This document shows positions 20,529-44,619 of a DNA stretch of 51,789 nt, in pieces (the stretch's first letter is position 1; every line of letters begins with the position of its first letter). The stretch covers positions 1 to 51,789 of IMG/VR virus record IMGVR_UViG_3300037155_000029. The stretch is one strand, 5' to 3'. The position numbers were made by a program, and so were the translations under genes. The stretch comes from a virus. Lineage: Duplodnaviria; Caudoviricetes. The notes beneath the pieces were generated by a model. That model was given only the letters and a program-made list of their open reading frames with translations, was not told the DNA's origin and made no database searches.

Positions 20529-20578
20529 TTGCTTACAATCGTTTGTCTCTGATCGGGTACATTTTTACAAATTGTTAC

Positions 20579-20890
20579 TTAATTACGGCAAAGCTCCTTC
20601 AAGACTTGCAATCTGAAAGTTTCCTTTGTCTTACTCATTACCTCTTCCGGTGTCATGTTCTCCTTTTTTGCCACTTCGTCAACCCCATAAACCTTAACGA
20701 GTCTTTCCCATTGAACCCGTGTTCTGTTGATCTGATTAACCCCAAAAGCCTTTTCAAACTTTGCCTTGGTGTCGATCAATAGTTTAGGATTGCTCAAAAG
20801 TCCGGCTTTAATCTTGTTGTAAGCCTTTGTTTGCGCCCTTTTGCGGAAATATTCTTTAATGAATGTGAACATGGTTATAGATTTTTTCAA
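20579..20890 (-). CDS. Hypothetical protein
   Basis: Basic ORF between portal and MuF. Confidence 0.5.
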   Translation of the reverse strand: MKKSITMFTFIKEYFRKRAQTKAYNKIKAGLLSNPKLLIDTKAKFEKAFGVNQINRTRVQWERLVKVYGVDEVAKKENMTPEEVMSKTKETFRLQVLKELCRN

Positions 20891-22196: not shown

Positions 22197-23137
22197 TAGT
22201 ACGAATTAATTAGTTTTTGATTGCCTCCGAATCGAATCCTGTTGCCCTGTAATGGCTGCAAAATTGGAAGCGAAGGCGTAATATCGTCGCCGATTACACA
22301 TGCTTGTAGCCAACCCAATGCACAGTATGTGGGATATAATACCCTTTGCCCTCTAATTCCCCGATCTTCGGCATTGCCCATATATTGTATCACCCTAAGT
22401 TCCGGCACATTTCGTGGTGAAATACGAAGGTGAGCTTTGTAAAGGACAATATTTATACAAATTTCAAGTAACTTCTGATCCCTGTTGTCGCCCTGTGTCC
22501 ATTTTGAATCTGTGATTACAGTGTTGGCGGCAACAGAATAAGCAACACCGGAACCCCAATACTGAACGCCGCTTATGGTGTCATCCGGGAAAATGTTTCT
22601 TATTTGATTAGTCTCCGACTGACCGATCTGGAGCATCGCTTCATGGTCGAGTATTTGCGTGGCCATTCGGCAGGTATAAACCTTATCTTTCCAAAATACC
22701 TGATTCCCAACCGCATAAATAGTTTGATAATCAAATAGATCATTAGGATAAGCGGCATAATAAATCGTATATTGTGGATTGATTATGGTCCAGTGTGCGG
22801 CGGTAAATGCTTCGTGTGCGATAATTGCAGTAGTACAAACATAAACGCTTCCGGCCTGTAAAACCATAGCCCCTAAAGCATAGTTTGAAGTTGCTGAATA
22901 AGAAGTAGCATTAAGATAAACAGTTTGCCCGGCTTTGTAGGTTTTGGTTTTGTCGTGCTGCGTGATTGACTGGAAGGCTTTCGAAACATCATATTTTTGC
23001 TTTAAATAACTCATACACTCTTCAACTGCGGCCTTTCGAATTGAGTCTAAAATTGTTTGATCTGATCCGATAATCTGCTGTAGATTGTCTGTTTGGATTT
23101 GTTTTGCGTAGTCGCCGTAAAATAGGAAGCTGTCCAT
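22196..23137 (-). CDS. Head-tail adaptor (Mu gp36/DUF1320-like) with internal aromatic repeats
   Basis: 'AVEECMSYLKQKYDV' and 'GDNRDQKLLEICINIVLYKAH...P..VPELR...ALGWL' flank three 'Y..G..V....VY.C' modules. Confidence 0.7.
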   Translation of the reverse strand: MDSFLFYGDYAKQIQTDNLQQIIGSDQTILDSIRKAAVEECMSYLKQKYDVSKAFQSITQHDKTKTYKAGQTVYLNATSYSATSNYALGAMVLQAGSVYVCTTAIIAHEAFTAAHWTIINPQYTIYYAAYPNDLFDYQTIYAVGNQVFWKDKVYTCRMATQILDHEAMLQIGQSETNQIRNIFPDDTISGVQYWGSGVAYSVAANTVITDSKWTQGDNRDQKLLEICINIVLYKAHLRISPRNVPELRVIQYMGNAEDRGIRGQRVLYPTYCALGWLQACVIGDDITPSLPILQPLQGNRIRFGGNQKLINSY

Positions 23138-23174
23138 AATTTCACATTTTGCGTAAAAGTAAGTAATTTAAAAA

Positions 23175-23182
23175 CAAAGATA
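23175..23182 (-). promoter_or_regulatory. Bacteroidota -7 promoter element TATCTTTG
   Basis: TAnnTTTG match in the intergenic gap upstream of 23137. Confidence 0.55.
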
Positions 23183-23189
23183 CAAATTT

Positions 23190-24662
23190 TTACCAACTAT
23201 TTTTCGAATAGTTTTTACCAACCAGAGGAATTGACACTTTGCCGCCTCGCTGATAATTCAGATATTCATTTGCAAATGTATAACAAATGAAATACCTGGT
23301 TAAATCAACAAAGTGTCCGTATGGCTGATAAGAAACCTTTGTGACCGGATCAGTAACGGTTTTTTTATCAACCTTCCCATTTTTATCTTCTTTTGTATTT
23401 TCATAATCAAGAATAGCTGTTCGGCATTTTATATCAACTCTAAATCTAAGACCTTGCTCTTCGTTTTCAAGAATTGAATTTAAAAATTCAGCCGACATTT
23501 TCACTGATGGATTTGAATGCAAAACGGCGCGGCGCGGTTTAAATTCAATTAGATCATTCATTAGCAACCTGAATAAGTCGTGACCCTTCTCCTGTTTTAC
23601 ATCATCTTTTTGCGATGTTGCGTCACCACCGATAAAAACAACCCCTTCATGTTTCCATTCATGTAGCTTTCTGGTTATTTCACGACACATTGAGTGGGTG
23701 GTGTTTTCTGGATTTTTCAATGCTATATTGTGAATTAAAAAGATGCTTTTCTGATCGTTCCCAACTTGAAAAATACCACATGGAAAATAAGGGTTTACGT
23801 TTTCATCAAAAATCAAATGAACTGCCAAATCAGAATTATAAGGATATATTCCTGTATGCTTTTCGCTTCGCCATTGTTTCAAAAATTCACCACCAAACAC
23901 GGTTTTTCCCCATTCGCCCAAAACATTAACCTTGTAGCTGTTAGCGTTTGTGAAGGCTAATGCCTTGTATTCTGAAATCAAATTTTCATCCCTATAACCA
24001 TAATCATTATCGGGACTTCCGGTAATCCAATAATTATCTTCGTAAGTTGTTTTGATTAAAATCACTTTACCGCAAGGCGATATTTTTACAAATGAATTTT
24101 CGCAGGGCAATTCCCATTCAGTGTCAACAAACCGATAATTGTCGACTAAATCAGTTTTAACCCAACTATTCTCGTCAACAGGATTCCATGAAGCGAATAT
24201 TTTCTGTCCCTCAATCCCGCGAAGCGATAAATTAAACTGTTCATATTCGGCGTGTTCAAATTGGTTTAATTCGTCAAGATAGATATATTTATATGATTCG
24301 ATACCTTTTGCTTTTTCTGAATCATCCAGTCCCTTCATTACGATTTCAGATGCCGTGCCAATATTTGACCGACAGGCAAACCTGCGATCCATTTTATCAA
24401 AGGCTGTATATAAATATTGATTGTTTATTGCAAGGCTAAATGATTTTTTTAAGGTGGTGGGGATTATTGTTGATTCCTTGCGAAAGGCTATCGAATTAAC
24501 ACCATGAACATAACACTCTTTTGTAAGTGCCTGACAAATTGAAACCGTTTTAGCGGATGATTTACCACCGTAAACCAAGACTATTCTAATAGATGGGTCT
24601 TTGATTATTTCATTAAGTATGAAATACAGCGGGTTATACCATTTCTTATTGAACCGAACCAT
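23190..24662 (-). CDS. terL: Terminase large subunit
   Basis: Walker A-like 'YGGKSSAKT', Walker B 'IYLDE', 'WNP', 'LGEWG' and C-terminal nuclease 'HFVDLTRY'. Confidence 0.92.
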   Translation of the reverse strand: MVRFNKKWYNPLYFILNEIIKDPSIRIVLVYGGKSSAKTVSICQALTKECYVHGVNSIAFRKESTIIPTTLKKSFSLAINNQYLYTAFDKMDRRFACRSNIGTASEIVMKGLDDSEKAKGIESYKYIYLDELNQFEHAEYEQFNLSLRGIEGQKIFASWNPVDENSWVKTDLVDNYRFVDTEWELPCENSFVKISPCGKVILIKTTYEDNYWITGSPDNDYGYRDENLISEYKALAFTNANSYKVNVLGEWGKTVFGGEFLKQWRSEKHTGIYPYNSDLAVHLIFDENVNPYFPCGIFQVGNDQKSIFLIHNIALKNPENTTHSMCREITRKLHEWKHEGVVFIGGDATSQKDDVKQEKGHDLFRLLMNDLIEFKPRRAVLHSNPSVKMSAEFLNSILENEEQGLRFRVDIKCRTAILDYENTKEDKNGKVDKKTVTDPVTKVSYQPYGHFVDLTRYFICYTFANEYLNYQRGGKVSIPLVGKNYSKNSW

Positions 24663-25175
24663 TTATTCATAGATTTCATCTTCCAAATCTTTACCGACCT
24701 TTTGAATGATCACATTTGTTTTTTCTTGTAATCCTAAGTCGCGTGCTATGATATTGGCATTAAAGAATCCGGCAACAGCTCCGCTAAACTTCTGATTATA
24801 AATAATTTCCCTGATACGCGATGTGATTATATTAAAATCTTTGGACAAATCGTCTGTTTTTGCGCTTATTTCGGTTTCAAAATGATTAAGGTACATTACA
24901 TTACAATCGAGATATAAACATAGTCCCTGAATAGTAAATGGTCTTAATCTTGGAAGCTCAACAAAGTTAGGAGGAAACACCATTTTGCCGTCATCATCTT
25001 TGAATGGCTTCATTGGTGAGTATTTCACCTGTTCGACTTCGTGGTATGGCGTATCTTCACACCATTGGAAGTATTCACAGGCGGCTTCCCAAAGTAGCTC
25101 AGGAGTGGCAAATAGTTTATCTCTCCCGTGTTTGCTGCGAAGCTTCCAAAATTGGTTTCCCATTGGTGCTGCCAT
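24663..25175 (-). CDS. terS: Terminase small subunit (P22 gp3-like)
   Basis: 'MAAPMGNQFWKLRSKHGR...LWEAACEYF...NANIIARDLGL'. Confidence 0.88.
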   Translation of the reverse strand: MAAPMGNQFWKLRSKHGRDKLFATPELLWEAACEYFQWCEDTPYHEVEQVKYSPMKPFKDDDGKMVFPPNFVELPRLRPFTIQGLCLYLDCNVMYLNHFETEISAKTDDLSKDFNIITSRIREIIYNQKFSGAVAGFFNANIIARDLGLQEKTNVIIQKVGKDLEDEIYE

Positions 25176-25192
25176 AAAGTAATTATTTCCGA

Positions 25193-25200
25193 CAAATATA
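25193..25200 (-). promoter_or_regulatory. -7 promoter element TATATTTG for the packaging operon
   Basis: TAnnTTTG just upstream of the terS ATG. Confidence 0.6.
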
Positions 25201-25307
25201 CAAAATAATTTTCGAATAATGCAAAGTTTTTATTTTTCACCTCAAAACCCCGGCTCTTGGGAGAAACCGGGGCGAAGTCTCGCAGAACTTTGCGAGAAAC
25301 TGCGAGG

Positions 25308-25559
25308 CTATTCGAAAATTGTATTTGCAATTAATTGCATTGCGTCGTTAAAGGCCTCTACTTTATCCTTATCGCTACCATTGTGGCGACACTCAATTAA
25401 AATAGTCATTCCGGGTGTCCCTTTGCTGAATAGCCCTTGGTTCCCAATTGTTAGATTTGCATCCTGATACATAGTAATACCAGTTTGGCGATCTGTTTTG
25501 TAAGTTGTGTCAATTTCGCAACTTACGGGTCTTTTCTCAATAATCTCTGAAATTTTCAT
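25308..25559 (-). CDS. Hypothetical protein
   Basis: 83-aa ORF with A-rich leader. Confidence 0.5.
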   Translation of the reverse strand: MKISEIIEKRPVSCEIDTTYKTDRQTGITMYQDANLTIGNQGLFSKGTPGMTILIECRHNGSDKDKVEAFNDAMQLIANTIFE

Positions 25560-25611
25560 TTTTTTATTTATTTGTTACGCGGTTAACTGAGGCCTCGCGT
25601 TATTCTCATTT

Positions 25612-25851
25612 TTATTTTAGTAACTCAAAGGTTGATTTCCCAATAAAGTATGTTTCGCCTGCTCCACCCTTTTTCGATTCAAAATGAATCGTACAATAAG
25701 CGCGTAGGGTTGATGTTGCTTTGTAAGAAGCAAGTGAATAATAAGAATGATTTCCTAATTCAATGATTGCGTTGATCTGTTCAATAGTTTTCATTTTCGG
25801 ATTGCGGATTTCCCCTTTGACTGGTGGTATTATATTTTCAGGATGCGGCAT
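25612..25851 (-). CDS. Hypothetical protein, apparently chimeric
   Basis: N-terminal MPHPENIIPPVKGEIRNPK joined to MKTIEQ...; TATATTTG on minus at 25907-25914. Confidence 0.45.
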   Translation of the reverse strand: MPHPENIIPPVKGEIRNPKMKTIEQINAIIELGNHSYYSLASYKATSTLRAYCTIHFESKKGGAGETYFIGKSTFELLK

Positions 25852-25942
25852 TTTGTCTAATCTTTATCAAATCAATTATCGTTTGCCATTTGCGTAATTA
25901 AAGGGGCAAATATATAAAACTATTCACCCGGCATGAAAAATT

Positions 25943-26746
25943 TTACCTGCGAACCTTTGCGCGAATCATACGCTCAACAAATGAGATAGTAGTTGTGCCT
26001 GTTGCAAGATTAAGTAAATACGCACCGCGATACTTTTTTGAGGTGTTCAGATTGTGGCGTAATGCAAACGCCTTGGTTCCTGCTTCACAATTTCCAGCAT
26101 TAATAGAGTCGGCGTAAGAATACTGTAATCTAAGAGCCTTTGACCATGTTTCGGCTTTCTTTGCCTCTTCTTTTGCTCTGTCAATATTGCGCTGACCTCC
26201 GATTTTTGCGGCCTCTTTAGTTTTTGCGTGAAATCCTGCAAAGATAAAACCACATTCGACGGTTAATTGGAAATTGTTTTTTGAGCCTTTTCCTACGTAC
26301 CAATAACATTTTTTGATCTGGGATTTTTGATCTGGAAAAATATGAGTAATAAGACCACCAATTACAACCGTATTACGCAAATCGGCAGGGTGCAATATGA
26401 GGTTAACTCTGCCGTGGTTTGCGCGATATTTGCACGAATTGGCATATTCCTGCGTACGATCATCGCGGCCAATCATCGAGCCGGAAGATACAACATAAAC
26501 GGAACCCATCGAAAAGCCGTCAGATGGTAGGTTTTTCGCAATGTTGCGAAGTCTGTCGATGATCAATTGATCACAAAATTGCTTAACTGTTTTTGGTGAT
26601 TGATTAAGGATTGAGCGTTCTCTCCTTTTTTTTACGATCTCAACGATTTCAGAATCAAACTTTAATTCGATAGTTTTGATGTTGACAAATTGATTGTCTG
26701 CCTTAACCGCCTTGGCATAGGTCTGAGCTACTGTTAATTGTTTCAT
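25943..26746 (-). CDS. Hypothetical protein
   Basis: 267-aa basic ORF with own promoter (TATCTTTG at 26832-26839, minus). Confidence 0.7.
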   Translation of the reverse strand: MKQLTVAQTYAKAVKADNQFVNIKTIELKFDSEIVEIVKKRRERSILNQSPKTVKQFCDQLIIDRLRNIAKNLPSDGFSMGSVYVVSSGSMIGRDDRTQEYANSCKYRANHGRVNLILHPADLRNTVVIGGLITHIFPDQKSQIKKCYWYVGKGSKNNFQLTVECGFIFAGFHAKTKEAAKIGGQRNIDRAKEEAKKAETWSKALRLQYSYADSINAGNCEAGTKAFALRHNLNTSKKYRGAYLLNLATGTTTISFVERMIRAKVRR

Positions 26747-26873
26747 CTTTTTCCGCCTTTAGCCTCAGCGACGAGGGTTCTTACTTTGTTTGATCCCGTT
26801 GTGGGTGGTGATCTATCCCCTTTTGTTGTATCAAAGATACATCATTAAATGACTGATTGCAAATAAATTCACA

Positions 26874-26885
26874 TGTTGTACAACA
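26874..26885. promoter_or_regulatory. Operator-like palindrome TGTT-GTAC-AACA
   Basis: One of five TGTT-N4-AACA sites upstream of -7 boxes. Confidence 0.55.
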
Positions 26886-26901
26886 GCTTTTCAATCTTTT
26901 T

Positions 26902-27147
26902 TCAATTAACAAACATCGTCTTTAAGTTGCTGAAAAAAAGGATAATGCGATTAAAAATTATTGGTTTGCATCCTGGACACATGAATGCAAGTTCGCTTTC
27001 TCCGTTTGAATTGTCACCGTCTTTGTACCATGCGGGATTTGAGGCGTAGGCATTATTACCAAGATTATAAGGCACGTCTGCAATAATTAACTGAGCCTTT
27101 GGAATTTGGTAAACTTTGAAATTCTGAAAGTGATCATGAATAAGCAT
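26902..27147 (-). pseudogene. Truncated N4/N6 DNA methyltransferase
   Basis: 'MLIHDHFQNFKVYQIPKAQLIIADVPYNLG...GESELA' contains catalytic motif IV, then breaks off near 26987 without the SAM-binding part. Confidence 0.75.
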
Positions 27148-27212
27148 AATATCGTAAGTTTTAAAGTATATTTCGCAAAGATGAAGCGTAAAGTAATACA
27201 ATCGTGAAAAGA

Positions 27213-27261
27213 TGTTATACAACATGAAATGTAAAATCAGCCATTTTTGATGTTATATTTG
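27213..27261 (+). promoter_or_regulatory. Early promoter with upstream operator
   Basis: TGTTATACAACA at 27213-27224 and TATATTTG at 27254-27261. Confidence 0.7.
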
Positions 27262-27303
27262 TAATGTTATCAGAAACGAATCTGAGACACAAAATTACGA
27301 CAA

Positions 27304-27567
27304 ATGACAACTACTTTTGAACAGAAAATCGAAGCACAGGTAAACATGAATAAGGTGGGTATTTATGAGGCTTTCGCAAATGAAGGCGAATTAAGAGCTT
27401 ACTGGAATCTTGGCGGCGACACAACGTCTCCAATGATGAAGAAAGTTTACATACCCGTATTTAATGGTGAAATCCTTTCTATCTCTTTTGAAAGAAGCCG
27501 CGCAATCCGCAATCTTTTGGATGAAGCCGGTGTATCAACACTTAACGAACTTGAAAATATGAACTAA
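27304..27567 (+). CDS. Hypothetical early protein
   Basis: First ORF after the promoter. Confidence 0.65.
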   Translation: MTTTFEQKIEAQVNMNKVGIYEAFANEGELRAYWNLGGDTTSPMMKKVYIPVFNGEILSISFERSRAIRNLLDEAGVSTLNELENMN

Positions 27568-27677
27568 TAGCCCCTGCCGTTCCCGTCGTAAGTTCCGGCG
27601 GTGGTTGCCTCGATAGGTTCGCTTATCGAGGCATTGGCAGTATAAGACATTATTATTCACTTTAAAAACTTTGAACG

Positions 27678-28415
27678 ATGCGAAAAATTGAAATTAAAAA
27701 CAGATGGGACGATTCAGTAATTAAGACCGTTGAAGTCGAGGACGGTGCAAGCCTGAGCGGTGCAAACCTGATCGATGCAGACCTGAGCGGTGCAAACCTG
27801 AGCGGTGCAGACCTGAGCGGTGCAAACCTGAGCGATGCAGACCTGAGCGATGCAGACCTGAGACGTGCAAACCTGAGCGGTGCAAACCTGAGCGGTGCAG
27901 ACCTGAGCGGTGCAAACCTGAGCGATGCAGACCTGAGCGATGCAGACCTGAGCGGTGCAAACCTGAGCGATGCAGACCTGAGCGATGCAGACCTGAGACG
28001 TGCAAGCCTGAGCGGTGCAGACCTGAGACGTGCAAGCCTGAGCGGTGCAGACCTGAGCGATTTACGTCTATCTGAAACCACCGGATTTTTATTGCCCTTA
28101 TGTCCGTCTGAGGGGTCGTTTATTGGATGGAAGAAAGCAGGCGGATATATTGTTAAAATTCAAATTTGCAAGGATGCAAAACGCTCAAATGCAACATCTT
28201 TAAAATGTAGGTGTTCATCTGCAAAGGTTATTTCAATTGAAAACATTGATAGTTCAAAATCTGGACTCAAAAATATTTGCAGTGATCACGACTGTAATTT
28301 TATTTACACTATTGGAAAGGTTGTTTCGGTTGAAAATTTTGATGAACAGCGTTTTAATGAATGTTCATCAGGTATTCACTTTTTTATTAGTCGCGAAATG
28401 GCAGTACAATATTAA
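27678..28415 (+). CDS. Pentapeptide repeat protein with Cys-rich C-terminal domain (DUF5758-like)
   Basis: About 21 A(D/N/S)L(S/R)x repeats, then '[12 protein letters not shown]...KCRCS...ECSSGIHFF'. Confidence 0.9.
27744..28060 (+). repeat. 15-bp tandem repeats encoding pentapeptides
   Basis: GCA(A/G)ACCTGAGCG(G/A)T units and variants. Confidence 0.9.
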
Positions 28416-28447
28416 GCCTCGAAGTTTTCAAAGTTCTTCGGGACTTG

Positions 28448-28476
28448 CCCCGCTTATCGAAAGGTAGCGGGGTTTT
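28448..28476 (+). terminator. Intrinsic terminator
   Basis: CCCCGCT...AGCGGGG followed by TTTT. Confidence 0.65.
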
Positions 28477-28600
28477 CGGGTGAGCAACGTTGCTCTTAAA
28501 AACTTTGATTATGACAACTTTTATTTTAACAATCGTAGCACCTTTGGCTTTATTGTGGATTGCTTCAAAGCTCCCAGATACAGCAACGAAATAGCCTTAG

Positions 28601-28733
28601 CGATAACGCTTGAGGCTAACCGCATGTAGCGGAATTAGAAGCACTTAACAATCAAAATACAACGAATATGGCAAAGAAAGAAAAACTTACGAAACCCACT
28701 GCCACCGCTATTGCGGTTGAGCCTGTGTTAGGG
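28601..28733 (-). other. attC-like site A
   Basis: TAAC 28604 ... GTTA 28727; stem AGGCTAACCGCATGTAGCGG/CCGCTATTGCGGTTGAGCCT with bulges; ATG 28668 lies in the loop. Confidence 0.75.
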
Positions 28734-29159
28734 TGCGTTATTGTTTCAAAATCTCTTTTTTTAGAGACCATGGAAGCAATTGAAAAACAGTATAAGCACG
28801 ACCAGAAATGTAATACTGCTTTTAAAACATTATTACCAAATGATTACACGAGCGGATATGATAATCACTGGGTAAATAATGAGCTTATTAAATATCTGCA
28901 AAAGGCAATGAATGATGAACATGCCGAAAGTTGGATTGAGTATTTTTTATGGGAGCTTGATTTTGGTAAAAAATACAGACCTGGAAGTGTAATTAGAAAA
29001 GATAAAACACATATTGATTTATCTAATGCTGGTAAACTTTACGATTATTTAATTGAGGAAAATAAATCAAAATGCTTACATCCATTAAGTGAATTAAGGT
29101 TTTGGAATGATTCAACAGTTGAATGTTTGATATGCGGTCATCGGGGGCTGACTTTTTAA
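28668..29159 (+). CDS. Cassette-borne hypothetical protein
   Basis: 163 aa; ends GTTAGGGTGCGTTA/TAATGCACCCTAAC. Confidence 0.7.
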   Translation: MAKKEKLTKPTATAIAVEPVLGCVIVSKSLFLETMEAIEKQYKHDQKCNTAFKTLLPNDYTSGYDNHWVNNELIKYLQKAMNDEHAESWIEYFLWELDFGKKYRPGSVIRKDKTHIDLSNAGKLYDYLIEENKSKCLHPLSELRFWNDSTVECLICGHRGLTF

Positions 29160-29163
29160 TGCA

Positions 29164-29257
29164 CCCTAACGAATTGGGCTATGTGCAGTTGCCCGTGTAC
29201 AAATTTTAAATATTGCACTAAACTTATCGGGCAATTGCATATTAGCCCGTGTTATAA
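29164..29257 (-). other. attC-like site B
   Basis: Stem GGGCTATGTGCAGTTGCCCG/CGGGCAATTGCATATTAGCCC between TAAC 29167 and GTTA 29251. Confidence 0.75.
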
Positions 29258-29268
29258 ACAGTAATTTT

Positions 29269-29514
29269 ATGGAAAAGATTTGTAACCAGCATTTTATAAA
29301 AGATACGCATAGGGATAAAAAATATACATCAACCCTTAAATGCTCGTGCTGTGGAGAAGAAAGTCATTTGACTCAGCCAGCTCCATTTTTGAAAGATTTT
29401 GTAAGATGGTTAAATGATTTTACAAAACTTCACAAAAATAAAGGATGTAATAAACATAAAATAGAGAACCAGGAATGGGCTGCAAAAGAAGTCTCTTTCG
29501 GAGTGGCAATCTGA
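29269..29514 (+). CDS. Cassette-borne hypothetical protein (possible Zn-binding)
   Basis: 81 aa with CSCC and HxxxGC; ends GTTATAAACAGTAAT/ATTATTGTTTATAAC. Confidence 0.65.
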   Translation: MEKICNQHFIKDTHRDKKYTSTLKCSCCGEESHLTQPAPFLKDFVRWLNDFTKLHKNKGCNKHKIENQEWAAKEVSFGVAI

Positions 29515-29521
29515 TTATTGT

Positions 29522-29654
29522 TTATAACGTTTGAGGCTAACCGCATGTAGCGGAAATTGAAACACTTAACAATCAAAATACAACAAATATGACAACGAAG
29601 ACGAAAGCAACAAGACCCACTAAACCCGCTATTGCGGTTGAGCCTGTGTTAGCA
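29522..29654 (-). other. attC-like site C (near copy of A)
   Basis: Same stem arms as A; ATG 29589 lies in the loop. Confidence 0.75.
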
Positions 29655-29903
29655 CCTGTTTTTAAATTTGGTGATTATTGCACAATTGAACAACATAGGT
29701 ACGGGTCAAATAATGAGCATTACCATCATAAGGTAATTGGAACGCTAAAATCAACAGCGTGGGTTGAAGTTCCTGTAATGTATAATCCACAAGAAAATAA
29801 CCATGATGAACTTGTTGATGTGGTTGCTTGCGTTTGCGAGGGGGTTGATGAACGGCATATATTTAGGTACAGAGCTATTGATTGCAAGCCGCTGTTTAAA
29901 TAG
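29589..29903 (+). CDS. Cassette-borne hypothetical protein
   Basis: 104 aa; ends GTTAGCACCTGTTT/AAATAGGTGCTAAC. Confidence 0.65.
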   Translation: MTTKTKATRPTKPAIAVEPVLAPVFKFGDYCTIEQHRYGSNNEHYHHKVIGTLKSTAWVEVPVMYNPQENNHDELVDVVACVCEGVDERHIFRYRAIDCKPLFK

Positions 29904-29904
29904 G

Positions 29905-30050
29905 TGCTAACGTTCGGCGGCTATCTGCCTGTTAAGGCGGGAGACGTGAGGCACGAACGGATCGATAGCCTTAATGGCAGATAATCGTTGTTCTGTGCAG
30001 TTACTTCGCGACGCGGAAATGTTTATAGGAGAGGCCGCCGAGCGTTCAGG
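29905..30050 (-). other. attC-like site D (two alternative GTT ends)
   Basis: Inner stem TATCTGCCTGTTAAGGC/GCCTTAATGGCAGATA; outer stem AACGTTCGGCGGC/GCCGCCGAGCGTT; GTT at 29990 and 30044. Confidence 0.65.
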
Positions 30051-30085
30051 TTCAATTAAAGTTTTGGGAATTTAAAATTTGAAAT

Positions 30086-30265
30086 ATGAGAACAGTTATT
30101 AGAATCACCTTTAAGGATGGACATCAGTTAATCGCTGATATTGACAAATTTGAAATGCTAACGGATAGGGAGGTTGTTACTTTATTTTCGGCCATTTATC
30201 CCGGTTGGTCCTCATTTCAAATTTTAAATGAAGAAACTTTAGGAGCGACCAAAGGAGCGACGTAA
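30086..30265 (+). CDS. Cassette-borne 59-aa protein (not in ORF track)
   Basis: MRTVIRITFKDGHQ...GATKGAT*; ends GTTCAGGTTCAATTA/TAATTGAACCTGAAC. Confidence 0.6.
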   Translation: MRTVIRITFKDGHQLIADIDKFEMLTDREVVTLFSAIYPGWSSFQILNEETLGATKGAT

Positions 30266-30310
30266 TTGAACCTGAACTCATAAATACAACCAATAAAATA
30301 ACGGCTTTTT

Positions 30311-30496
30311 ATGAAACAATATACTGAAACATACAGGATTAAGCTCTCAATAATTCAGCGGGAGAAACTGGATAAGTTGAAAACGGAATTTAAGATTTTA
30401 CCCGCGAGGTTTATTCGATTGGCAATTGAAGAGAAGTTAAAAAATGATCTTCCAAAATTAAGGGTCAAGGCGAAAAAACAATCCTGTCCGTTCTAA
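30311..30496 (+). CDS. Ribbon-helix-helix-like regulator
   Basis: 'YRIKLSIIQREKLDKLK...PARFIRLAIEEKL'. Confidence 0.6.
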   Translation: MKQYTETYRIKLSIIQREKLDKLKTEFKILPARFIRLAIEEKLKNDLPKLRVKAKKQSCPF

Positions 30497-30564
30497 ATAT
30501 GTTCTTTAACAGCTTTTGTGAATTATATTGAGCATTAAACTAAATTGCAGAAAATTTGAAAAAT

Positions 30565-30822
30565 ATGAAAAGAGAACCAATAAAAACAGTAAAATTTGAA
30601 AACAAAGGTACGTTCGAGGCATATTATGCGGCCTGTAATTGGTGTAATGAAAATGGCTACAGTTACGGAAGTATGTGTGGAAGCGAGCCTATTGCCCTAT
30701 GGATGGGTGAACGTAGTATTTCAAAATGGAAAAACTTAAGCACGAAAGAAAGGGCTACGTGTGACGGCGTAATGATGGGAGAGTTTAGGGAAGGAGCCGT
30801 AACTATTCTTATTTATAATTAA
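30565..30822 (+). CDS. Hypothetical protein
   Basis: ORF after TGTTCTTTAACA (30500) and a promoter-like TAAATTGC (30541). Confidence 0.6.
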   Translation: MKREPIKTVKFENKGTFEAYYAACNWCNENGYSYGSMCGSEPIALWMGERSISKWKNLSTKERATCDGVMMGEFREGAVTILIYN

Positions 30823-30826
30823 AACT

Positions 30827-31072
30827 ATGACACCATCAAAAAAAATAAGGGACTTTTTCACTCCTGAACGGTTGATTAAATACGATCTAATTAGTATTGA
30901 GTCATTGGCTGGCGTTAAATCTGGAGTAATTGCATTAATTTTAAGAGAAGAACTTCATGATTCATTCACTGACGATTCCGCAAACAATCTTCTTGTTGTG
31001 ACAAATAACATTTTAAAGGATGAAAAAACATCCGATAAGTTAGTAGTTCTTAAATTTGTAACTAAAAAATAA
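30827..31072 (+). CDS. Hypothetical protein
   Basis: 81-aa ORF in operon. Confidence 0.5.
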   Translation: MTPSKKIRDFFTPERLIKYDLISIESLAGVKSGVIALILREELHDSFTDDSANNLLVVTNNILKDEKTSDKLVVLKFVTKK

Positions 31073-31077
31073 ACGCC

Positions 31078-31266
31078 ATGAAAGATTTCACATTGCTTCA
31101 ATCCATTGTTTTTTATTTCCTGATTTTTTGGGGATTTGTTTCTGTTGTTTTGGACCTTTATCTCCGATCCAGAATAAAAACTCAGGAGTCTCACGATTGG
31201 GAACTGAATGAATCCGGCGAATTTGTTGATATTACCGACTATTCGAAATCTGAAGAGTGGCGATGA
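31078..31266 (+). CDS. Small membrane protein
   Basis: N-terminal hydrophobic helix. Confidence 0.5.
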   Translation: MKDFTLLQSIVFYFLIFWGFVSVVLDLYLRSRIKTQESHDWELNESGEFVDITDYSKSEEWR

Positions 31267-31460
31267 ACGCATGGTATTCGTCTCAAAATCGCTTTATTTC
31301 GAAAGTCAAAAAGGACTGGAATAAACGAGGCTTTAAACCGAATTCCGGAAATTACAACATCCTTCGGTTCGCTTACAGAAATATGATTTTTTACGCAAAT
31401 CTTAGAAATGAACGAGTAAGTAAAGTTAACAAAATCAATACACAACCAAAATTATTTTAA
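31263..31460 (+). CDS. Hypothetical basic protein
   Basis: ATGA-coupled to the previous ORF. Confidence 0.45.
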   Translation: MNAWYSSQNRFISKVKKDWNKRGFKPNSGNYNILRFAYRNMIFYANLRNERVSKVNKINTQPKLF

Positions 31461-31461
31461 A

Positions 31462-31734
31462 ATGAAAACAATTAAATTTGAATCAGCAAAGCCCATCGCG
31501 GTATTTTTACTCCTGATTATCTTCGCCTGTTGCTTTTCCTGTGCGGTTCAGGCAGAAACTCGACTTCCAATTTCGACAAGTTGGTTTTCTAATAACAACG
31601 CCAGAACGGCCAAAATGAATGCAGTCTGGGGGCACACTAAGAAACATCACAAACACCGGCATATCGTTAAGGGTGATGGAAAAACGATGAAAGTAAATCG
31701 GGTTTCAACTTGTCCGCTAAGTCGGAAGTATTGA
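31462..31734 (+). CDS. Small secreted/lipoprotein-like basic protein
   Basis: Signal-like 'IAVFLLLIIFACCFSC' followed by a His/Lys-rich tail. Confidence 0.5.
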   Translation: MKTIKFESAKPIAVFLLLIIFACCFSCAVQAETRLPISTSWFSNNNARTAKMNAVWGHTKKHHKHRHIVKGDGKTMKVNRVSTCPLSRKY

Positions 31735-31743
31735 TTTATTTTG

Positions 31744-31751
31744 TATTTTTG
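31744..31751 (+). promoter_or_regulatory. -7 promoter element for the RNA locus
   Basis: TATTTTTG upstream of the tRNA-like element and tmRNA. Confidence 0.55.
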
Positions 31752-31796
31752 CATTGATAAATGGCGCCAATATACCGCTTGTTAATAGTATATCGC

Positions 31797-31855
31797 TGAG
31801 GGGTGACAGAGTGGTAATGTTTAAACAATCGGAGGTTCGAATCCTTCCCCCTTTT
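31797..31855 (+). ncRNA. tRNA-like element lacking an anticodon arm
   Basis: Acceptor GAGGGG/CCCCTT, D arm ACA-GAGTGGTAA-TGT, T arm GGAGG-TTCGAAT-CCTTC, with only 10 nt between D and T arms. Confidence 0.65.
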
Positions 31856-31869
31856 CAATGTTCGTTGAA

Positions 31870-32198
31870 GTTATTAGTAAAATTCGTTTGGACGCGGGTT
31901 CGACTCCCGCCAGCTCCACGCTAATCGCCAATTAGATTAGCCAGATATGCCTCTCATTAAACATATACTGTGAGATATCGGTTAAAAATGATCGAATAAA
32001 GCCATCTGAAATACGACAGGTAATTAACTCGGAGGTATTTATATGATAAAAATATCTGGCTTTATATTTGGGGCTGACCGGTATTGACAGCGAAGAAATA
32101 AGGTAACGGAGAGCATTAAAGCTGTAAAAGGCAAATCTTTAGAAATGAAAATGGCTGCGTAAGACGTGGACTTTTCAGCCGGGGCTTCGGCTCCGGTT
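31870..32198 (+). ncRNA. ssrA: Circularly permuted two-piece tmRNA
   Basis: The 3' module GACGCGGGTTCGACTCCCGCCAGCTCCA (31891-31918) precedes the 5' module GGGGCTGACCGGTATTGAC (from 32070). Acceptor stem has G3-U70. Tag ORF 32130-32162 encodes GKSLEMKMAA*. Confidence 0.88.
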
Positions 32199-32199
32199 T
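32177..32199 (+). terminator. Hairpin ending the tmRNA coding piece
   Basis: AGCCGGGGC-TTCG-GCTCCGGTT followed by a short T run. Confidence 0.65.
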
Positions 32200-32223
32200 A
32201 AATTAAAACTAAAAACAAGAAAC

Positions 32224-32475
32224 ATGAAACAATTAGCAGAAGTACGATCAAATGTTTATTTTGAGAAAAAAATAAACGAACAGAAAAATGAAGTCCTTAA
32301 AAAGCGGTTTGAGTTAGTTTTTGTCACTGATGAAGCTGGCTACATAAGGACAAATGACGGTGAAATTTCGCGGGTCAGAAAACTTAAAGAGCAAAGATTT
32401 ACTGTCTCAGAAGATGGGTTAACTCAATTAATCGCCAATCTTCTTTTGATTCAAGAAAATTCTGAGGAAAAGTAG
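32224..32475 (+). CDS. Hypothetical protein
   Basis: 83-aa ORF with A-rich leader. Confidence 0.6.
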   Translation: MKQLAEVRSNVYFEKKINEQKNEVLKKRFELVFVTDEAGYIRTNDGEISRVRKLKEQRFTVSEDGLTQLIANLLLIQENSEEK

Positions 32476-32560
32476 TTTAATTCAAATTAATTTTGTAGCT
32501 TTGTCCCGTTGCCCCGTGAATAGGGGTAATTTTTGAATGAAAAATTTAAACATTTAAAGT

Positions 32561-32713
32561 ATGCCAAAAAAGGAAATACGACAGGATGTGGCAACACAAA
32601 CTGAATACGCTAAACTGGTCGGCAAAACGCCTCAGTGGGTAAATCAGCAAATCAAAGAAGGTAATTTAAACACACTCCACGTAAAGGGTGCAGTTTTGGT
32701 TAAACTTAAATAA
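32561..32713 (+). CDS. Small HTH DNA-binding protein (not in ORF track)
   Basis: MPKKEIRQDVATQTEYAKLVGKTPQWVNQQIKEGNL..., 50 aa; TAGCTTTG at 32496. Confidence 0.65.
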   Translation: MPKKEIRQDVATQTEYAKLVGKTPQWVNQQIKEGNLNTLHVKGAVLVKLK

Positions 32714-32749
32714 GCTCTTTTTTTCATCAAAAATTTACACATTTAAAAT

Positions 32750-33268
32750 ATGACTTACTCAGACAAACTTAAAAGTCCTAAATGGCAAAAGAAAAGGCTT
32801 GAAATTTTAAACCTTCATAAATTCAAGTGTGACGAATGTAAATCAGAAGTGAAAACCCTTCATGTTCACCACCGTTTTTATTTGAAAGGGCGCGAGCCAT
32901 GGGAGTACGACAATGATGTTTTTCAGGTTCTTTGCGAAGATTGCCACGAAAAAACGCACAAAAAAGAAGATATAATAAAAGAGAATATCCCAGATATTTA
33001 TCGTGAAATTTTGTCATTATTAGATGTAGCAAACGATATAAATCCAAACACACCGGAAAATATTAAATTTCTTTTAACTGTTTTTACTGAGCATATAGAC
33101 GATGTTGAATTTTTAGACAATCTATCTTCTGCGTGTAATAGTGGTTATTTAGATAAATTAAGATATGACCTTACTGCAAGGGCAGAAGCGGAATGCGACA
33201 GTATCAGGAGGTGGTCGGCAATTTACGAAATAAAAAAATTTCTTAATATAAATACCGATCCTTTATGA
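32750..33268 (+). CDS. HNH endonuclease-domain protein
   Basis: 'WQKKRLEIL...CDEC...LHVHH...LCEDCH'. Confidence 0.8.
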   Translation: MTYSDKLKSPKWQKKRLEILNLHKFKCDECKSEVKTLHVHHRFYLKGREPWEYDNDVFQVLCEDCHEKTHKKEDIIKENIPDIYREILSLLDVANDINPNTPENIKFLLTVFTEHIDDVEFLDNLSSACNSGYLDKLRYDLTARAEAECDSIRRWSAIYEIKKFLNINTDPL

Positions 33269-33963
33269 AAGATCCGGCTTTTCTCTTCTACTCAGATAAT
33301 TTTATGAGTGGCACAATGTTTTTTTCTGATGAACAAGTGGGTAAATATATTCGTCTGCTTTGTGCTCAGCATTTAACAGGTCATTTACTCGAAAATCATA
33401 TGATATTTATATGTAAAAAATATGATGAAGAAATATTTAAAAAGTTTGTAAAAGACGAGGAGGGAAAATACTATAATATTAGACTTGAAGAGGAAATTAT
33501 TAAGCGATACAACTATTCTAAAAGTCGATCAGAGAATAAATTAGGCAAGACAAAAAAGACTAAAATCATATCAAAATCACATGATAAACATATGGGAAAT
33601 GGAAATGAAGATGAAAATACAGTTGTAAATAATAAAAAAGCATTGAGCGAAAAGTTTGAGATTTTCAGAAAATCATACCCTGGTACAAAGTGCGGTTTTC
33701 AATGTGAACTTGATAAATTTATCAAAAAAAGTCAGAATGGAGATATTGATCTTTTATTACCAGCCCTTGAAAAAGAAAAATCACACAAAGCAAAATTAAG
33801 AGAATTAAATAAATTTTGTCCAGAATGGAAAAATCTATCAACATGGATAAATCAAAAATGTTGGATGCAAGAATTTCCAGAAACAGAAACAAACACTTTG
33901 CTAATTAAAGAGGAAATTACTCAAGAGCAAAAGGACTATTTAGCACGATTTAACCAAAAATAA
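33265..33963 (+). CDS. Replication initiator (DUF1376/YdaU-like N-terminus)
   Basis: 'KDPAFLFYSDNF...GKYIRLLC' and C-terminal 'FEIFRKSYP...STWINQKCW'. Confidence 0.75.
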   Translation: MKDPAFLFYSDNFMSGTMFFSDEQVGKYIRLLCAQHLTGHLLENHMIFICKKYDEEIFKKFVKDEEGKYYNIRLEEEIIKRYNYSKSRSENKLGKTKKTKIISKSHDKHMGNGNEDENTVVNNKKALSEKFEIFRKSYPGTKCGFQCELDKFIKKSQNGDIDLLLPALEKEKSHKAKLRELNKFCPEWKNLSTWINQKCWMQEFPETETNTLLIKEEITQEQKDYLARFNQK

Positions 33964-33965
33964 AA

Positions 33966-34631
33966 ATGAAACACATCTCAAAAATCATCCAACAGGGAAA
34001 CGAAAAAAAGTCGGTCAATTTAGGTAAGATTAAAACCATCGAAAAGGAATTAACTGTTGAAATTAAAAACGCCTTTATGATTTCGGCACGATCCATTTGT
34101 CCTGATTTTATTGTCACAAAAGAATTAATTCAGCCGCTGAATGATATTTGCACCTACTTTTTAGGACTTGAGGGCAATTTAAACCTGAATAAAGGCATTT
34201 ACTTATCTGGTGAGTATGGAGTAGGAAAATCTACCTTAATGAAGTGTTTCAGGCAATGGCTTGCCGACTGGTGGCCGTTTAATGGTAATGGTTTTATGGT
34301 TACTTCGATTGAGGAAATTATTGAGAGTTACAAAAAAGAAAACAACCTCAATAAGTTCACAAATTGCATTAATGAGGATGGTTTTAATAATCCCAGGCAT
34401 TTACTTATTAATGAATTTGGTAAAAAAATCGACGAAAAAATCTACGGTACAGAAGCAAAGCATATCATTAACAATCTTATGATGATTCGGTATGATATTT
34501 TTCAGAATCAGGGAAAATTAACACACATAACAAGTAACTCAATGCCTTACAATGACGATAAAGCGTTGAATGATCGGTATGTTGAAATGTTTAATTTGAT
34601 TATTATTGACGGTAAATCATTTAGAAAATAA
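33966..34631 (+). CDS. DnaC/IstB-like P-loop ATPase (helicase loader)
   Basis: Walker A GEYGVGKS, Walker B variant LLINEFG, 'THITSN', 'DRYVEMFN...GKSFR'. Confidence 0.8.
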   Translation: MKHISKIIQQGNEKKSVNLGKIKTIEKELTVEIKNAFMISARSICPDFIVTKELIQPLNDICTYFLGLEGNLNLNKGIYLSGEYGVGKSTLMKCFRQWLADWWPFNGNGFMVTSIEEIIESYKKENNLNKFTNCINEDGFNNPRHLLINEFGKKIDEKIYGTEAKHIINNLMMIRYDIFQNQGKLTHITSNSMPYNDDKALNDRYVEMFNLIIIDGKSFRK

Positions 34632-34635
34632 TATT

Positions 34636-34860
34636 ATGGACACACTTTTTAAACTTTCTGATCTTCAAAAATTACAGCGTAAAATAATTACCCTAAAATG
34701 TAAGACGTGTGAATTTTGCGAAAGATGGCAATGTGGAGGTTCTTTCTTTTTTTATTGCAAAACGAGAAAAAGTAAATTAACCCATAATGGGTTATTGAAA
34801 ATTAAAGCAAATCAGGAAGCGTGTCCGCTTCATCCAAAATTCAAAAATTCATCCCAATGA
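34636..34860 (+). CDS. Cys-rich hypothetical protein
   Basis: CKTCEFC...C...C pattern. Confidence 0.5.
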   Translation: MDTLFKLSDLQKLQRKIITLKCKTCEFCERWQCGGSFFFYCKTRKSKLTHNGLLKIKANQEACPLHPKFKNSSQ

Positions 34861-35043
34861 GAGCTTTTACGAAGTTGACAAAAAAGAGGGTAGTCCGTTT
34901 TAATTCTTTAAAGCCGCCTTAATTTTTGCGAATCAGAACAAAAAGGCGGATGGTAATTAATAATAATTTGAAACCGTTGTTAATATTTTACCCTTTATTT
35001 GTAATTGTAAGAAATATTTATTTACTTTGTGAAAATTTAAAAT

Positions 35044-35334
35044 ATGAAAATTGGAATTGCCATTAAAAAATTGCGCAAAGAACGAGTACCGCAATTAAGA
35101 CAGTCACAATTAGCCGAGGCTATTGGGATTTCACAAACTTATTTATCACTTATTGAGAAAGGTAAAAAAATACCAAGTGTTGAAATATATGAGAAAATTG
35201 CCGAATATTTCAAAATGCCCCTACCCATACTTTTTTGGTATTGTATCGAGGAGTCCGATATTCCAAAAGAAAAGTGGGAGTATTTTAGACTGCTTAAGCC
35301 GTCAATTGATAAGCTGATTGAAGTTTGTTTTTAA
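35044..35334 (+). CDS. XRE-family HTH regulator
   Basis: 'QSQLAEAIGISQTYLSLIEKGKKIPS'. Confidence 0.9.
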   Translation: MKIGIAIKKLRKERVPQLRQSQLAEAIGISQTYLSLIEKGKKIPSVEIYEKIAEYFKMPLPILFWYCIEESDIPKEKWEYFRLLKPSIDKLIEVCF

Positions 35335-35348
35335 ATATCTTTCAAATA

Positions 35349-35393
35349 ATTGACATTAATACGATCATTGACATTAATACGATCATTGACATT
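35349..35393 (+). repeat. 18-bp tandem repeat (2.5 copies)
   Basis: ATTGACATTAATACGATC twice plus ATTGACATT. Confidence 0.85.
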
Positions 35394-35770
35394 TCACCTT
35401 CAAGAGAAAAGAAGGTCTGCCAGAACTGCAAATATTTCCATAAATGGGGCGTACATCTTGGAAATTGCATTAACCGCAAAAAATATACTGAAAAATTGGA
35501 TGATCAAACTTGTAATAAATTTGAAGCAAAATGAGATACACATATTTTCCGACAACAGAAAAGATCGTCTTTAAAATAAAGATTGATCGTGGAGACGAAA
35601 GGTGGAGACCATCAATTCAAATCAACCATTGGTGGTTTGGAGAGTTTTATTATCACTTAATATTTTTGTGATTCTCAAAACATGTTCTTCAACAGCTTTC
35701 TACCGACCTATTGCTATTATGACGACATTTGTATCAGGTTCTTAAAATCAAACAATTAAATAGAAAAAAC

Positions 35771-42469: not shown

Positions 42470-42662
42470 CCTTCAAGCCGGATGGTATGAAACGACTCAA
42501 TATATTGACGGAAGAACTGTAAAGACTATGGTTTTTTACGATTCTGATTCGGGAAAGTTTTACGATCTAAAATTAGATGAGGTCGTGAAGCCTTCTGGAA
42601 GTTTGAAATTTAAGTTTAAAGACGGGTTGATTTTGGTCGATAAGGAGGATGATGCGTGTTAG
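42459..42662 (+). CDS. Hypothetical protein
   Basis: 67-aa ORF whose stop lies in GTTAG at 42658. Confidence 0.45.
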   Translation: MKNNLQAGWYETTQYIDGRTVKTMVFYDSDSGKFYDLKLDEVVKPSGSLKFKFKDGLILVDKEDDAC

Positions 42663-42728
42663 TTGTCTGGGCGGTAAAACTGGCACGAATTTGATTAAAA
42701 GTGATAAAGTAAAAAAAGAAAAATAGCG

Positions 42729-43217: not shown

Positions 43218-43287
43218 CGGTGCGCTGGCTTTTTCTTTTTTGGTCAAGTTCATACGAACTTCATTAAAAGCGAAAAACCAGCCTTGC

Positions 43288-43418
43288 AACTAACGGTATC
43301 CAGCTATGTGCAGGGCGGGATGCGGAGAGAAAATTTGTCAAGCTGCACAAACCAACGGGCGGGTTAAGTCGCTCGAATTACAAACAATACCCGACTTGAC
43401 ATATAGCTGGGGTTATAA
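43288..43418 (-). other. attC-like site E
   Basis: Stem CCAGCTATGTGCAGGGCGGG/CCCGACTTGACATATAGCTGG between TAAC 43291 and GTTA 43412. Confidence 0.7.
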
Positions 43419-43431
43419 ACAGTTTTCAATC

Positions 43432-43815: not shown

Positions 43816-43818
43816 ATT

Positions 43819-43964: not shown

Positions 43965-43999
43965 ATCAATTTGAATACCGAGAATTTAAAATTTTAGTC

Positions 44000-44251: not shown

Positions 44252-44272
44252 TTTGGAGCGAACGCAATTGAT

Positions 44273-44402: not shown

Positions 44403-44422
44403 TGCGTTTATTCTTAATCAAA

Positions 44423-44614: not shown

Positions 44615-44619
44615 ATGCA

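Follow-up and report, generated by a model that had tools for sequence, protein, structure and literature searches.

Integron-like arrays of small gene cassettes in a phage genome without a recombinase gene, and related elements in Bacteroidota

The prevailing view is that Bacteroidota have almost no integrons and that an insertion unique to the integron integrase, IntI, is indispensable to these systems. Small accessory genes are also exchanged as modules in the promoter-early-stem-loop (PeSL) cassettes of T4-type phages, for which the proposed exchange is homologous, and in the pdif modules of Acinetobacter plasmids, which rely on 28-bp double-stranded Xer sites. Finally, in CTX-phage-type integration at dif, a host-supplied Xer enzyme that lacks the IntI insertion acts on a forked hairpin of one strand. 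Here we analyze two arrays of small genes separated by hairpins in a virus of the Caudoviricetes, the complete IMG/VR record IMGVR_UViG_3300037155_000029 (51,789 nucleotides (nt), direct terminal repeats, 37.9% G+C; hereafter, the window). Both lie on the + strand, array 1 at 28.6–30.3 kb and array 2 at 43292–45096. With a probability that we put at roughly 70%, these arrays consist of mobile gene cassettes that belong to an integron-like system, widespread among Bacteroidota and their phages, and that are exchanged on the folded + strand by an Xer/IntI-like enzyme supplied in trans.

Integrase-less clusters of attC sites (CALINs) have already been published in phages; Qi et al (2023; PMC9892861) report 17 of them among 10,705 phage genomes, with the virulent Polaribacter phage P12002L as one of the carriers. 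For attC sites, Nivina et al (2016; PMC5027507) describe cleavage of the bottom strand at the AAC on the 5′ arm, extrahelical bases on the other arm (canonically G16 and T23/24) and an enrichment of G:T pairs. IntegronFinder 2 was reported to find almost no integrons in Bacteroidetes, and the IntI insertion is essential for integron function and not fully conserved in an "integron-like" subgroup (Smyshlyaev et al, 2021). A literature search, with subscription journals outside its coverage, returned no description of Xer-type-recombinase arrays in Bacteroidota or phages.

Compared with integrons and CALINs, the window has the same single-gene units split by imperfect AAC/GTT hairpins (57–141 nt there, 86–138 nt here), a unit start complementary to the unit's own end, a boundary at AA|C, one strand that folds better and carries G:T pairs, and growth at one array end, beside a tyrosine recombinase gene in relatives. 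It differs in that the recombinases next to sister arrays lack the IntI insertion, the phage homologues being only 266–276 amino acids (aa) long in the eight open reading frames (ORFs) extracted. In addition, the end boxes are 14 nt long with a GTTA...GTT periodicity of 10 nt, whereas integron boxes have 7 nt; the spacers measure 5 and 2 nt, as opposed to 5–6 nt on both arms; the phage genes lie on the folding strand, some of them starting inside the site; and the recombinase of phage relatives is found downstream of the array, on the same strand. With two clusters of four sites and no integrase in a complete 51.8-kb genome, the window resembles a CALIN in architecture, a category defined, by way of the attC model, as at least two attC sites close together and no integron integrase in the vicinity. 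A folded single strand, an Xer-type enzyme and its supply in trans would be shared with CTX/dif recombination, which, however, brings a whole phage genome into one chromosomal site and builds no arrays of gene-sized units with unit-specific ends. PeSL and pdif modules resemble the arrays as small accessory genes exchanged between short repeated elements, but they do not have structure-conserved, sequence-variable hairpins with gene-specific complementary ends.

Array 1 is made of four consecutive units, each consisting of a hairpin and a gene. An earlier note on this DNA had described four genes with their own inverted ends, and we recovered all four pairs where it had placed them, each around one small ORF: 28727–28740/29157–29170 (14 nt, 93%), 29251–29265/29514–29528 (15 nt, 93%), 29648–29661/29898–29911 (14 nt, 93%), and 30044–30058/30263–30277 (15 nt, 100%). 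The lone mismatch of the first three pairs is the same G·T wobble. The AAC...GTT hairpins of the earlier note are also present, although their lengths (125, 86, 125, and 138 nt) give a range of 86–138 nt instead of the 90–145 nt that it had announced. We delimited the sites by folding and scored them with a covariance model, R1, built from an alignment of 20 sites (A2). Unit 1 (28607–29169; ends GTTAGGGTGCGTTA and TAATGCACCCTAAC) comprises site A (28594–28740; hairpin from AAC 28605 to GTT 28729; R1 115.4 bits, E 3e-23) and an ORF of 163 aa (28668–29159; alternative ATG 28771), whose ATG and first ~21 codons lie in the loop of the site and of which PHROG 28377 covers residues 28–130 only. Unit 2 (29170–29527; ends GTTATAAACAGTAAT and ATTATTGTTTATAAC) has the short site B (29157–29264; hairpin 29168–29253; R1 41.9 bits, E 3e-7) and an ORF of 81 aa (29269–29514). 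Unit 3 (29528–29910; ends GTTAGCACCTGTTT and AAATAGGTGCTAAC) combines site A′ (29515–29661; hairpin 29526–29650; R1 124.1 bits) with a 104-aa ORF (29589–29903) that again starts in the loop, at ATG 29589, and that PHROG 18349 covers over residues 26–100; site A is 84% identical to this region over 129 nt (29524–29652). Unit 4 (29911–30276; ends GTTCAGGTTCAATTA and TAATTGAACCTGAAC) contains site C (29898–30057; hairpin 29909–30046), whose base is fully paired (AACGTTCGGCGGC and GCCGCCGAGCGTT) and which has a relative at 43823–43960, followed by an ORF of 59 aa (30086–30265). The array terminates at 30275–30290 with AAC|TCATAAATAC and no hairpin behind it (fold z 0.52), at the position where relatives carry an attI-like box and a recombinase gene.

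A regularity of these units concerns their ends. We compared the 14 nt after the GTT of one site with the 14 nt before the AAC of the next one, ignoring the four constant first positions and allowing the G·T pair, in 33 cassettes from the window and five related viral loci. At least nine of the ten variable positions were complementary in 24 of the 33 cassettes (mean 8.7). In contrast, the boxes that flank one and the same hairpin reached this level in only 2 of 42 cases (mean 4.45), and all other box pairs did so in 1.8% of 1688 comparisons. The R″-type complementarity between the two ends of a cassette, which the earlier note had described for integrons, is thus present in the arrays. Boxes flanking a gene belong together and boxes flanking a hairpin do not, a pattern that cutting and joining of units at a single point, located in the foot of the folded site, would produce. 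Within the window, seven of the eight cassettes keep complementary ends of 13–15 nt. A search for pairs of GTT plus 10 nt and its complement, 100–600 nt apart and with at most one mismatch, found eight pairs, seven of them within the two arrays; in 200 first-order Markov simulations, the number of pairs averaged 0.6 and never exceeded 4.

Related loci differ by whole units. The viral records L004 and L007 are 99.8–100% identical in their flanks and diverge at two places: L004 has one extra hairpin-plus-gene unit between ...CGCTAAC|GGT and ...TTTACAAC|GGT, and in L007 the array end holds two additional units, located between the last ...GCTAAC| and TATGGCG, which is non-array DNA. Neither record gave a PF00589 match, both being incomplete (15 kb at 26% and 53 kb at 70%, respectively). 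Further breaks were read from another related virus, L003, and from assembled contigs of other peat metagenomes. L003 shares unit 4 with the window, at 97.7% identity over 29907–30301, and has different DNA on both sides of 29907–30277; contig X5 matches 29907–30278 exactly; contig X3 keeps gene 1 and its upstream site up to 29171 and then continues with a different downstream hairpin; and contig X4 joins other DNA at 30275. Homology breaks at AAC in all of them: at 29171 (X3), at 29907 and 30278 (X5 and L003), and at 30275 (X4). The earlier note had proposed comparing relatives for gain or loss of exact units, and such differences were found; variation in the L004/L007 units and in the metagenome contigs follows the boundaries, falling on AAC triplets. 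The note's G|TT-bounded units need one correction: the + strand boundary is AA|C at the 5′ foot of each hairpin, which reads G|TT on the complementary strand, and not the G|TT in the 3′ foot. The unit on the + strand is C-hairpin-GTT...gene...AA, and additions occur at the downstream end of the array. Unit indels, AAC breaks and the end rule in 33 cassettes together support reading the arrays as cassettes.

These data also bear on whether general homologous recombination at the hairpin linkers, through RecT and NinG/Rap and without any site-specific enzyme, much as has been proposed for PeSL cassettes, could have produced the arrays. Hairpin families are 80–92% identical between otherwise unrelated cassettes, with the similarity ending at both AAC and GTT, the phage encodes RecT and NinG/Rap, and indels without hairpins do exist. 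We nevertheless regard this explanation as very unlikely, because it accounts neither for complementarity between gene-flanking but not hairpin-flanking boxes (24/33 versus 2/42) nor for breakpoints on the AAC triplet, and leaves unexplained why, in 80 viral loci described below, all 189 sites lie on one strand upstream of a tyrosine recombinase gene.

We next describe the anatomy of the sites, based on a consensus of 32 distinct ones from the window and from eight IMG/VR contigs with common hairpin sequences. On the gene-sense strand, the 5′ part reads xAAT-N6-TAAC, followed by G plus four unpaired nucleotides and by a stem arm of ~19 nt that often starts with G(G/C)TAT(G/A). The 3′ part is formed by a loop often starting with GATTA, a second arm with one or two bulges, (G/T)T, and GTTA-N6-GTT. 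AAC was conserved in 31 of 32 aligned sites and GTT in all 32. A T at −8 (31/32) faces a G at +10 (26/32), and this constant G·T wobble explains the apparent mismatch in the inverted-end pairs. Upstream of AAC, a pyrimidine (Y) was found at −1 in 31 sites, at −2 in 20 and at −3 in 21, and a purine (R) at −4 in 15; downstream of GTT, R occurred at +3 in 30 sites, at +4 in 16 and at +5 in 21, and Y at +6 in 12 (n = 32 for both sides). Agreement with RYYYAAC and GTTRRRY of integrons is confined to the inner positions. Sites fall into length classes of 122–126, 82–90, 138, and ~50–56 nt. On the 3′ arm of site A, a G bulges out at position 15 and a T near position 23 is unpaired, counted from the outer end of a 7-nt box, close to the canonical G16 and T23/24 of Nivina et al (2016; PMC5027507). 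In site B, the bulged base is a T, at position 16. The two spacers are 5 nt long on one arm and 2 nt on the other.

R1 identified six sites in the window, all on the + strand, and 38 matches at E ≤ 0.01 in the window plus the viral loci, on one strand only per locus. The modeled strand folds better in 33 of 42 sites, with a median difference of −4.2 kcal/mol. RNAalifold recovered only 10 consensus pairs from alignment A2, since bulges lie at different places in different site families. The C-type sites (29909–30046 and 43823–43960), with a perfectly paired 13-bp base and no unpaired spacer, form a separate class outside the coverage of R1; for the second of them, the minus strand folds better (−36.3 versus −31.5 kcal/mol). 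Contig X6 carries a hybrid of these two C-type sites. We rejected the interpretation of its joint (29992→43939) as a deletion, as the hybrid hairpin has 34 other letters between its two sides. The ORF that follows site A, A′, or E already begins inside the loop, which contains its start codon and first ~20 codons, and the PHROG profiles for two of these loop-started proteins begin only past the loop-encoded leader.

The same element is found in bacterial chromosomes. A 23-nt stretch of site A also occurs in a Lutibacter metagenome-assembled genome (MAG), G002, and in a complete Bacteroidales chromosome, G001, in which R1 detected 52 and 26 sites, respectively (150 candidates scored per genome). 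Among 151 sampled Bacteroidia genomes, a tally that includes the unpublished G096, 76 had an R1 match at E ≤ 1e-8. The end rule holds in these bacterial arrays as well; for example, 8 of 11 cassettes of genome G150 reached at least 9/10. As a separate observation, three near-identical sites of G001 (L037 2568, L037 18268, and L039 15454) start with TTAGACAGTCTGACG and have GAC where all other sites have AAC.

Gene orientation differs between the two settings. In bacterial arrays, the longest ORF is opposite to the folding strand in 28/28 and 11/12 cassettes, which is the canonical integron arrangement, whereas phage ORFs are on the folding strand (8/8 in the window and 16/18 in viral loci L006 and L004). 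It is a possibility, still hypothetical, that in the inverted phage cassettes the sense strand serves as lagging-strand template and is thereby exposed as single-stranded DNA. That one element appears in both gene orientations argues against an RNA structure as its primary meaning. If the hairpins were elements of the early transcript, acting in its processing, stability, or translation, the modular pattern would be a by-product. Such a role would suit the phage sites, where the better-folding strand is the sense strand with G·U-type wobbles and the loops of A, A′, and E contain start codons. However, the folding strand of the bacterial cassettes is antisense to the genes, the unit indels at AAC are events at the DNA level, and no Rfam family matches the hairpins. 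We consider it a slim chance that RNA function explains the arrays, although the sites may have a secondary RNA role in phages.

Bacterial arrays adjoin a tyrosine recombinase gene. In G002, a 396-aa recombinase is encoded 2–5 kb from the array, and the gene is present as a single copy in 27 of 41 Lutibacter genomes. In G424, G407, G420, and G428, R1 arrays start 2.7–5 kb downstream of the recombinase, with every site on the opposite strand, and the array of G424 spans ~87 kb. As these five genomes belong to one genus, we counted them as one arrangement. Independent cases are provided by homologues of 34–44% identity at the same array end and in the same orientation in G150, G109, G118, G130 (twice), and G011. 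In G001, a pseudogene remnant of the recombinase (63% identity over 70 aa) lies 2.3 kb past the end of a 25-kb array, and in G118 the junction AAC|TTGTATATATATG is 90 nt from the recombinase stop codon. In at least seven Lutibacter MAGs, the array-linked recombinase gene was located ~0.1–1.3 kb from a contig end, suggesting that repeat-rich arrays break assemblies and are under-represented in MAGs.

The bacterial recombinase scores 220.4 bits on NF040815 (cut-off 220) and 199 bits on TIGR02249 (cut-off 265). In view of the missing IntI insertion, the likely enzyme is not a canonical integron integrase. One could still propose that a canonical host IntI acts on the hairpins as ordinary attC sites, as for other phage CALINs with IntI1; in the work of Qi et al (2023; PMC9892861), five of six phage attC sites were recombined by IntI1. 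An energy scan of P12002L revealed five small AAC...GTT hairpins of similar design on the gene-sense strand, which would favor this proposal. Nonetheless, R1 has no match in P12002L, the arrays adjoin recombinases devoid of the IntI insertion, and canonical IntI (TIGR02249 above cut-off) was found in just one of 401 sampled Bacteroidia genomes (G282), compared with 76 of 151 for the element. We therefore find service by canonical IntI barely plausible. P12002L is at most a tentative member of the system described here, the ends of its gp54 gene matching by eye over only 8 nt.

Phage relatives carry their own recombinase next to the array. Using an alignment of three bacterial recombinases (A4), we retrieved 188 viral relatives and kept 80 loci. 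R1 sites at E ≤ 0.001 totaled 189, and every one of them (189/189) was upstream of the recombinase gene and on the same strand. They were distributed over 49 of the 80 loci, or 45 of the 61 with at least 1.5 kb of upstream sequence, and the nearest site ended a median of 675 nt before the recombinase match. In the four junctions read, from among the loci of the eight extracted recombinase ORFs, the last unit ends in TAAC|TA(T/C/G)TATATATA (TAAC|TAnTATATATA) shortly before the gene. Two generic integrases of G447, one of the five related viral records, were rejected as array enzyme, with 28% identity to the array-linked family over 147 aa.

The earlier note had described the phage as having no integron integrase, and indeed six-frame searches of the window at E ≤ 10 yielded no tyrosine recombinase or integron integrase, and likewise no Y1 transposase or serine recombinase. 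Relative to the recombinase-bearing phage arrays, the window matches in sites, strand, and gene orientation, without the junction box and without the recombinase. The phage is thus probably a member of the integron-like system that has no recombinase of its own, and its cassette genes point the other way from those of bacterial arrays. We infer that its recombinase is provided in trans; the candidates are members of the Xer/IntI-like family that stands beside such arrays in Bacteroidia chromosomes and related phages.

Array 2 repeats the design of array 1, with four more hairpins and three clean end pairs, and both arrays have a hairpin at the start and a hairpin-less AAC at the end. Unit 1 (43294–43824) comprises site B′ (43281–43425; hairpin 43292–43414, 123 nt; R1 83.7 bits) and an ORF of 127 aa (43432–43815); its ends have decayed, so that complementarity remains at 3 of the 10 variable positions (43412/43825). 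Unit 2 (43825–44278; ends GTTAGGGATCAAT and ATTGATCCCTAAC) contains site C′ (43823–43960) and an 83-aa ORF (44000–44251). Unit 3 (44279–44625), with site D (44277–44398; R1 119.6 bits) and a 63-aa ORF (44423–44614), shares its end boxes with unit 1 of array 1. Unit 4 (44626–45095; ends GTTAGCCACCGTT and AATGGTGGCTAAC) carries site E (44624–44745; R1 102.8 bits), with ATG 44677 in its loop, and the ORF of a GNAT acetyltransferase (44677–45084, 135 aa; PF00583 match, 1.3e-8). The array ends at 45094–45125 with AAC|TCATTGCTATACGTAATGTATATATAC (AAC|TCATTGC...), the site hairpin being absent behind it. At the head of array 2, there may be an extra cassette (42658–43294), in which GTGTTAGTTG (42655) and CAACTAAC (43287) share an 8-nt complementary core around an ORF at 42729–43217; R1 detected no hairpin upstream of it. 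At the head of array 1, the palindrome GAGCAAC|GTTGCTC (28483–28496), in which AAC abuts GTT, follows the terminator of a pentapeptide gene and precedes a hydrophobic ORF of 34 aa (28490–28594). It could be an empty or minimal site, and its ends are weakly complementary to the box before site A.

The mechanism that we propose builds on the observed anatomy, the end rule, the exact gain and loss of units at AAC, growth at one array end, and the fixed adjacency to recombinases elsewhere. In each unit, a small gene stands behind a site made up of a 5-nt unpaired spacer, a bulged stem of ~19 bp, a loop of variable sequence and length, and a spacer of 2 nt, with GTT as its end. The box of 14 nt that comes after GTT (GTTA-N6-GTT) is complementary to the 14 nt before the closing AAC (xAAT-N6-TAAC), and pairing of the two boxes of a unit would extend the hairpin stem in an excised circle. 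This is the rule of integrons, from which it would follow that a single strand is exchanged at AA|C, on the + strand in its folded form. The + strand would fold, corresponding to the "bottom strand" of an attC site, and a tyrosine recombinase, most likely of the Xer/IntI-like type without the IntI insertion, would exchange one strand between A and C. Excised circles could then re-insert at the array end or at another site. The enzyme would come in trans from a co-infecting related phage or from the host, and exchange would still take place in this phage today.

Several observations weigh against this interpretation. First, the end boxes assort independently of the hairpin families: at least five different GTT boxes occur with site A, and one identical GTT box follows either site A or site D, which exchange at AA|C alone does not explain. 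Second, gene indels without hairpins occur beside array 1, at 30302–30494 and 30555→30819. Third, the bacterial recombinase is missing ~45 residues that the true IntI of G282 has between its two catalytic halves, and a similarly built element located 1 kb upstream of intI in G282 scores only 10.2 bits with R1 (E 0.23). Fourth, the cassette genes of both window arrays were absent from G001, G002, G420, G424, and G407 in DNA searches, the similarity being limited to site A. Finally, the automated tally of bulge positions was unreliable and was used for the bulged G of site A only, and no recombination products were seen in the data, which are assembled contigs that can show variants but not circles or rare excisions. 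Each of the two indels just downstream of array 1 concerns a single gene: L003 has a different gene in place of the 61-aa one at 30302–30494, and the one of 88 aa at 30556–30822 is absent from L003, X5, and X6.

The TAnTATATATA box is also missing directly after both terminal AACs of the window, and no recombinase remnant was detected in it (tblastn best E 0.12). For these reasons, the arrays could be fossils, built by an ancestor that had a phage-type recombinase at the array end and static since the loss of that gene, with nothing acting in trans. The terminal junctions, AAC|TCATAAATAC and AAC|TCATTGC..., which differ from those of recombinase-bearing relatives, and the one degraded cassette at 43412/43825 would fit such a history. 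Against it, complementary ends persist in seven of eight window cassettes, when they would be expected to decay without selection, and L004 and L007 differ by exact units despite nearly identical flanks. As these two incomplete records apparently lack a recombinase, their unit indels favor action in trans over a fossil, and we judge fossil arrays to be unlikely. No single alternative explains the end rule together with the breakpoints at AAC and the position of sister arrays beside recombinase genes.

Exchange of cassettes by an Xer/IntI-like enzyme in trans would have wider implications. The cassette logic is found in half of the sampled Bacteroidia genomes and in many phages, beside recombinases without the IntI insertion. 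If our interpretation is correct, single-strand recombination guided by DNA structure does not depend on the IntI domain, a large reservoir of cassettes escapes standard integron finders, and phages own a dedicated device to acquire and reshuffle small accessory genes, a capacity relevant to their ability to keep up with the defenses of their hosts. A broader proposal, for which we see about even odds, is that Bacteroidota and their phages share a distinct integron analogue in which Xer-like tyrosine recombinases without the IntI insertion act on folded single-stranded sites. The phages would maintain a cassette pool of their own, its genes inverted and its translation starts placed inside the sites; those without a recombinase, such as the phage studied here, would borrow the enzyme from co-infecting phages or from hosts, and together they would have a communal, rapidly changing store of accessory and counter-defense genes.

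Regarding the genomic context, the window has a minus-strand structural block that includes the large terminase, with Flavobacterium phages as nearest cultured relatives (33% identity). The arrays are part of a plus-strand early block (~27.3–45.1 kb) that encodes RecT (PF03837 match, 5e-29), a metallo-beta-lactamase (MBL)-fold protein, an HNH protein, NinG/Rap, helix-turn-helix regulators, and replication proteins. Neither site D nor site A′ had a blastn match among 50,697 phage records. Array 1 is adjoined by a gene for a pentapeptide-repeat and DUF5758 protein (27678–28415), the repeat region of which shows ~81% DNA identity to pentapeptide genes of Rheinheimera and Bordetella phages. Rfam detected a permuted transfer-messenger RNA (tmRNA) at 31859–32162 (RF04321, 66.3 bits), directly after a tRNA-like element at 31797–31855 (RF00005, 33 bits); ARAGORN made no tRNA or tmRNA call on the window. 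Lastly, comparison of the close relative L003 with positions 19810–35534 of the window showed the early-gene block (~29.9–35.5 kb) to be inverted relative to the structural block, which could reflect a genome rearrangement or a different gene order.

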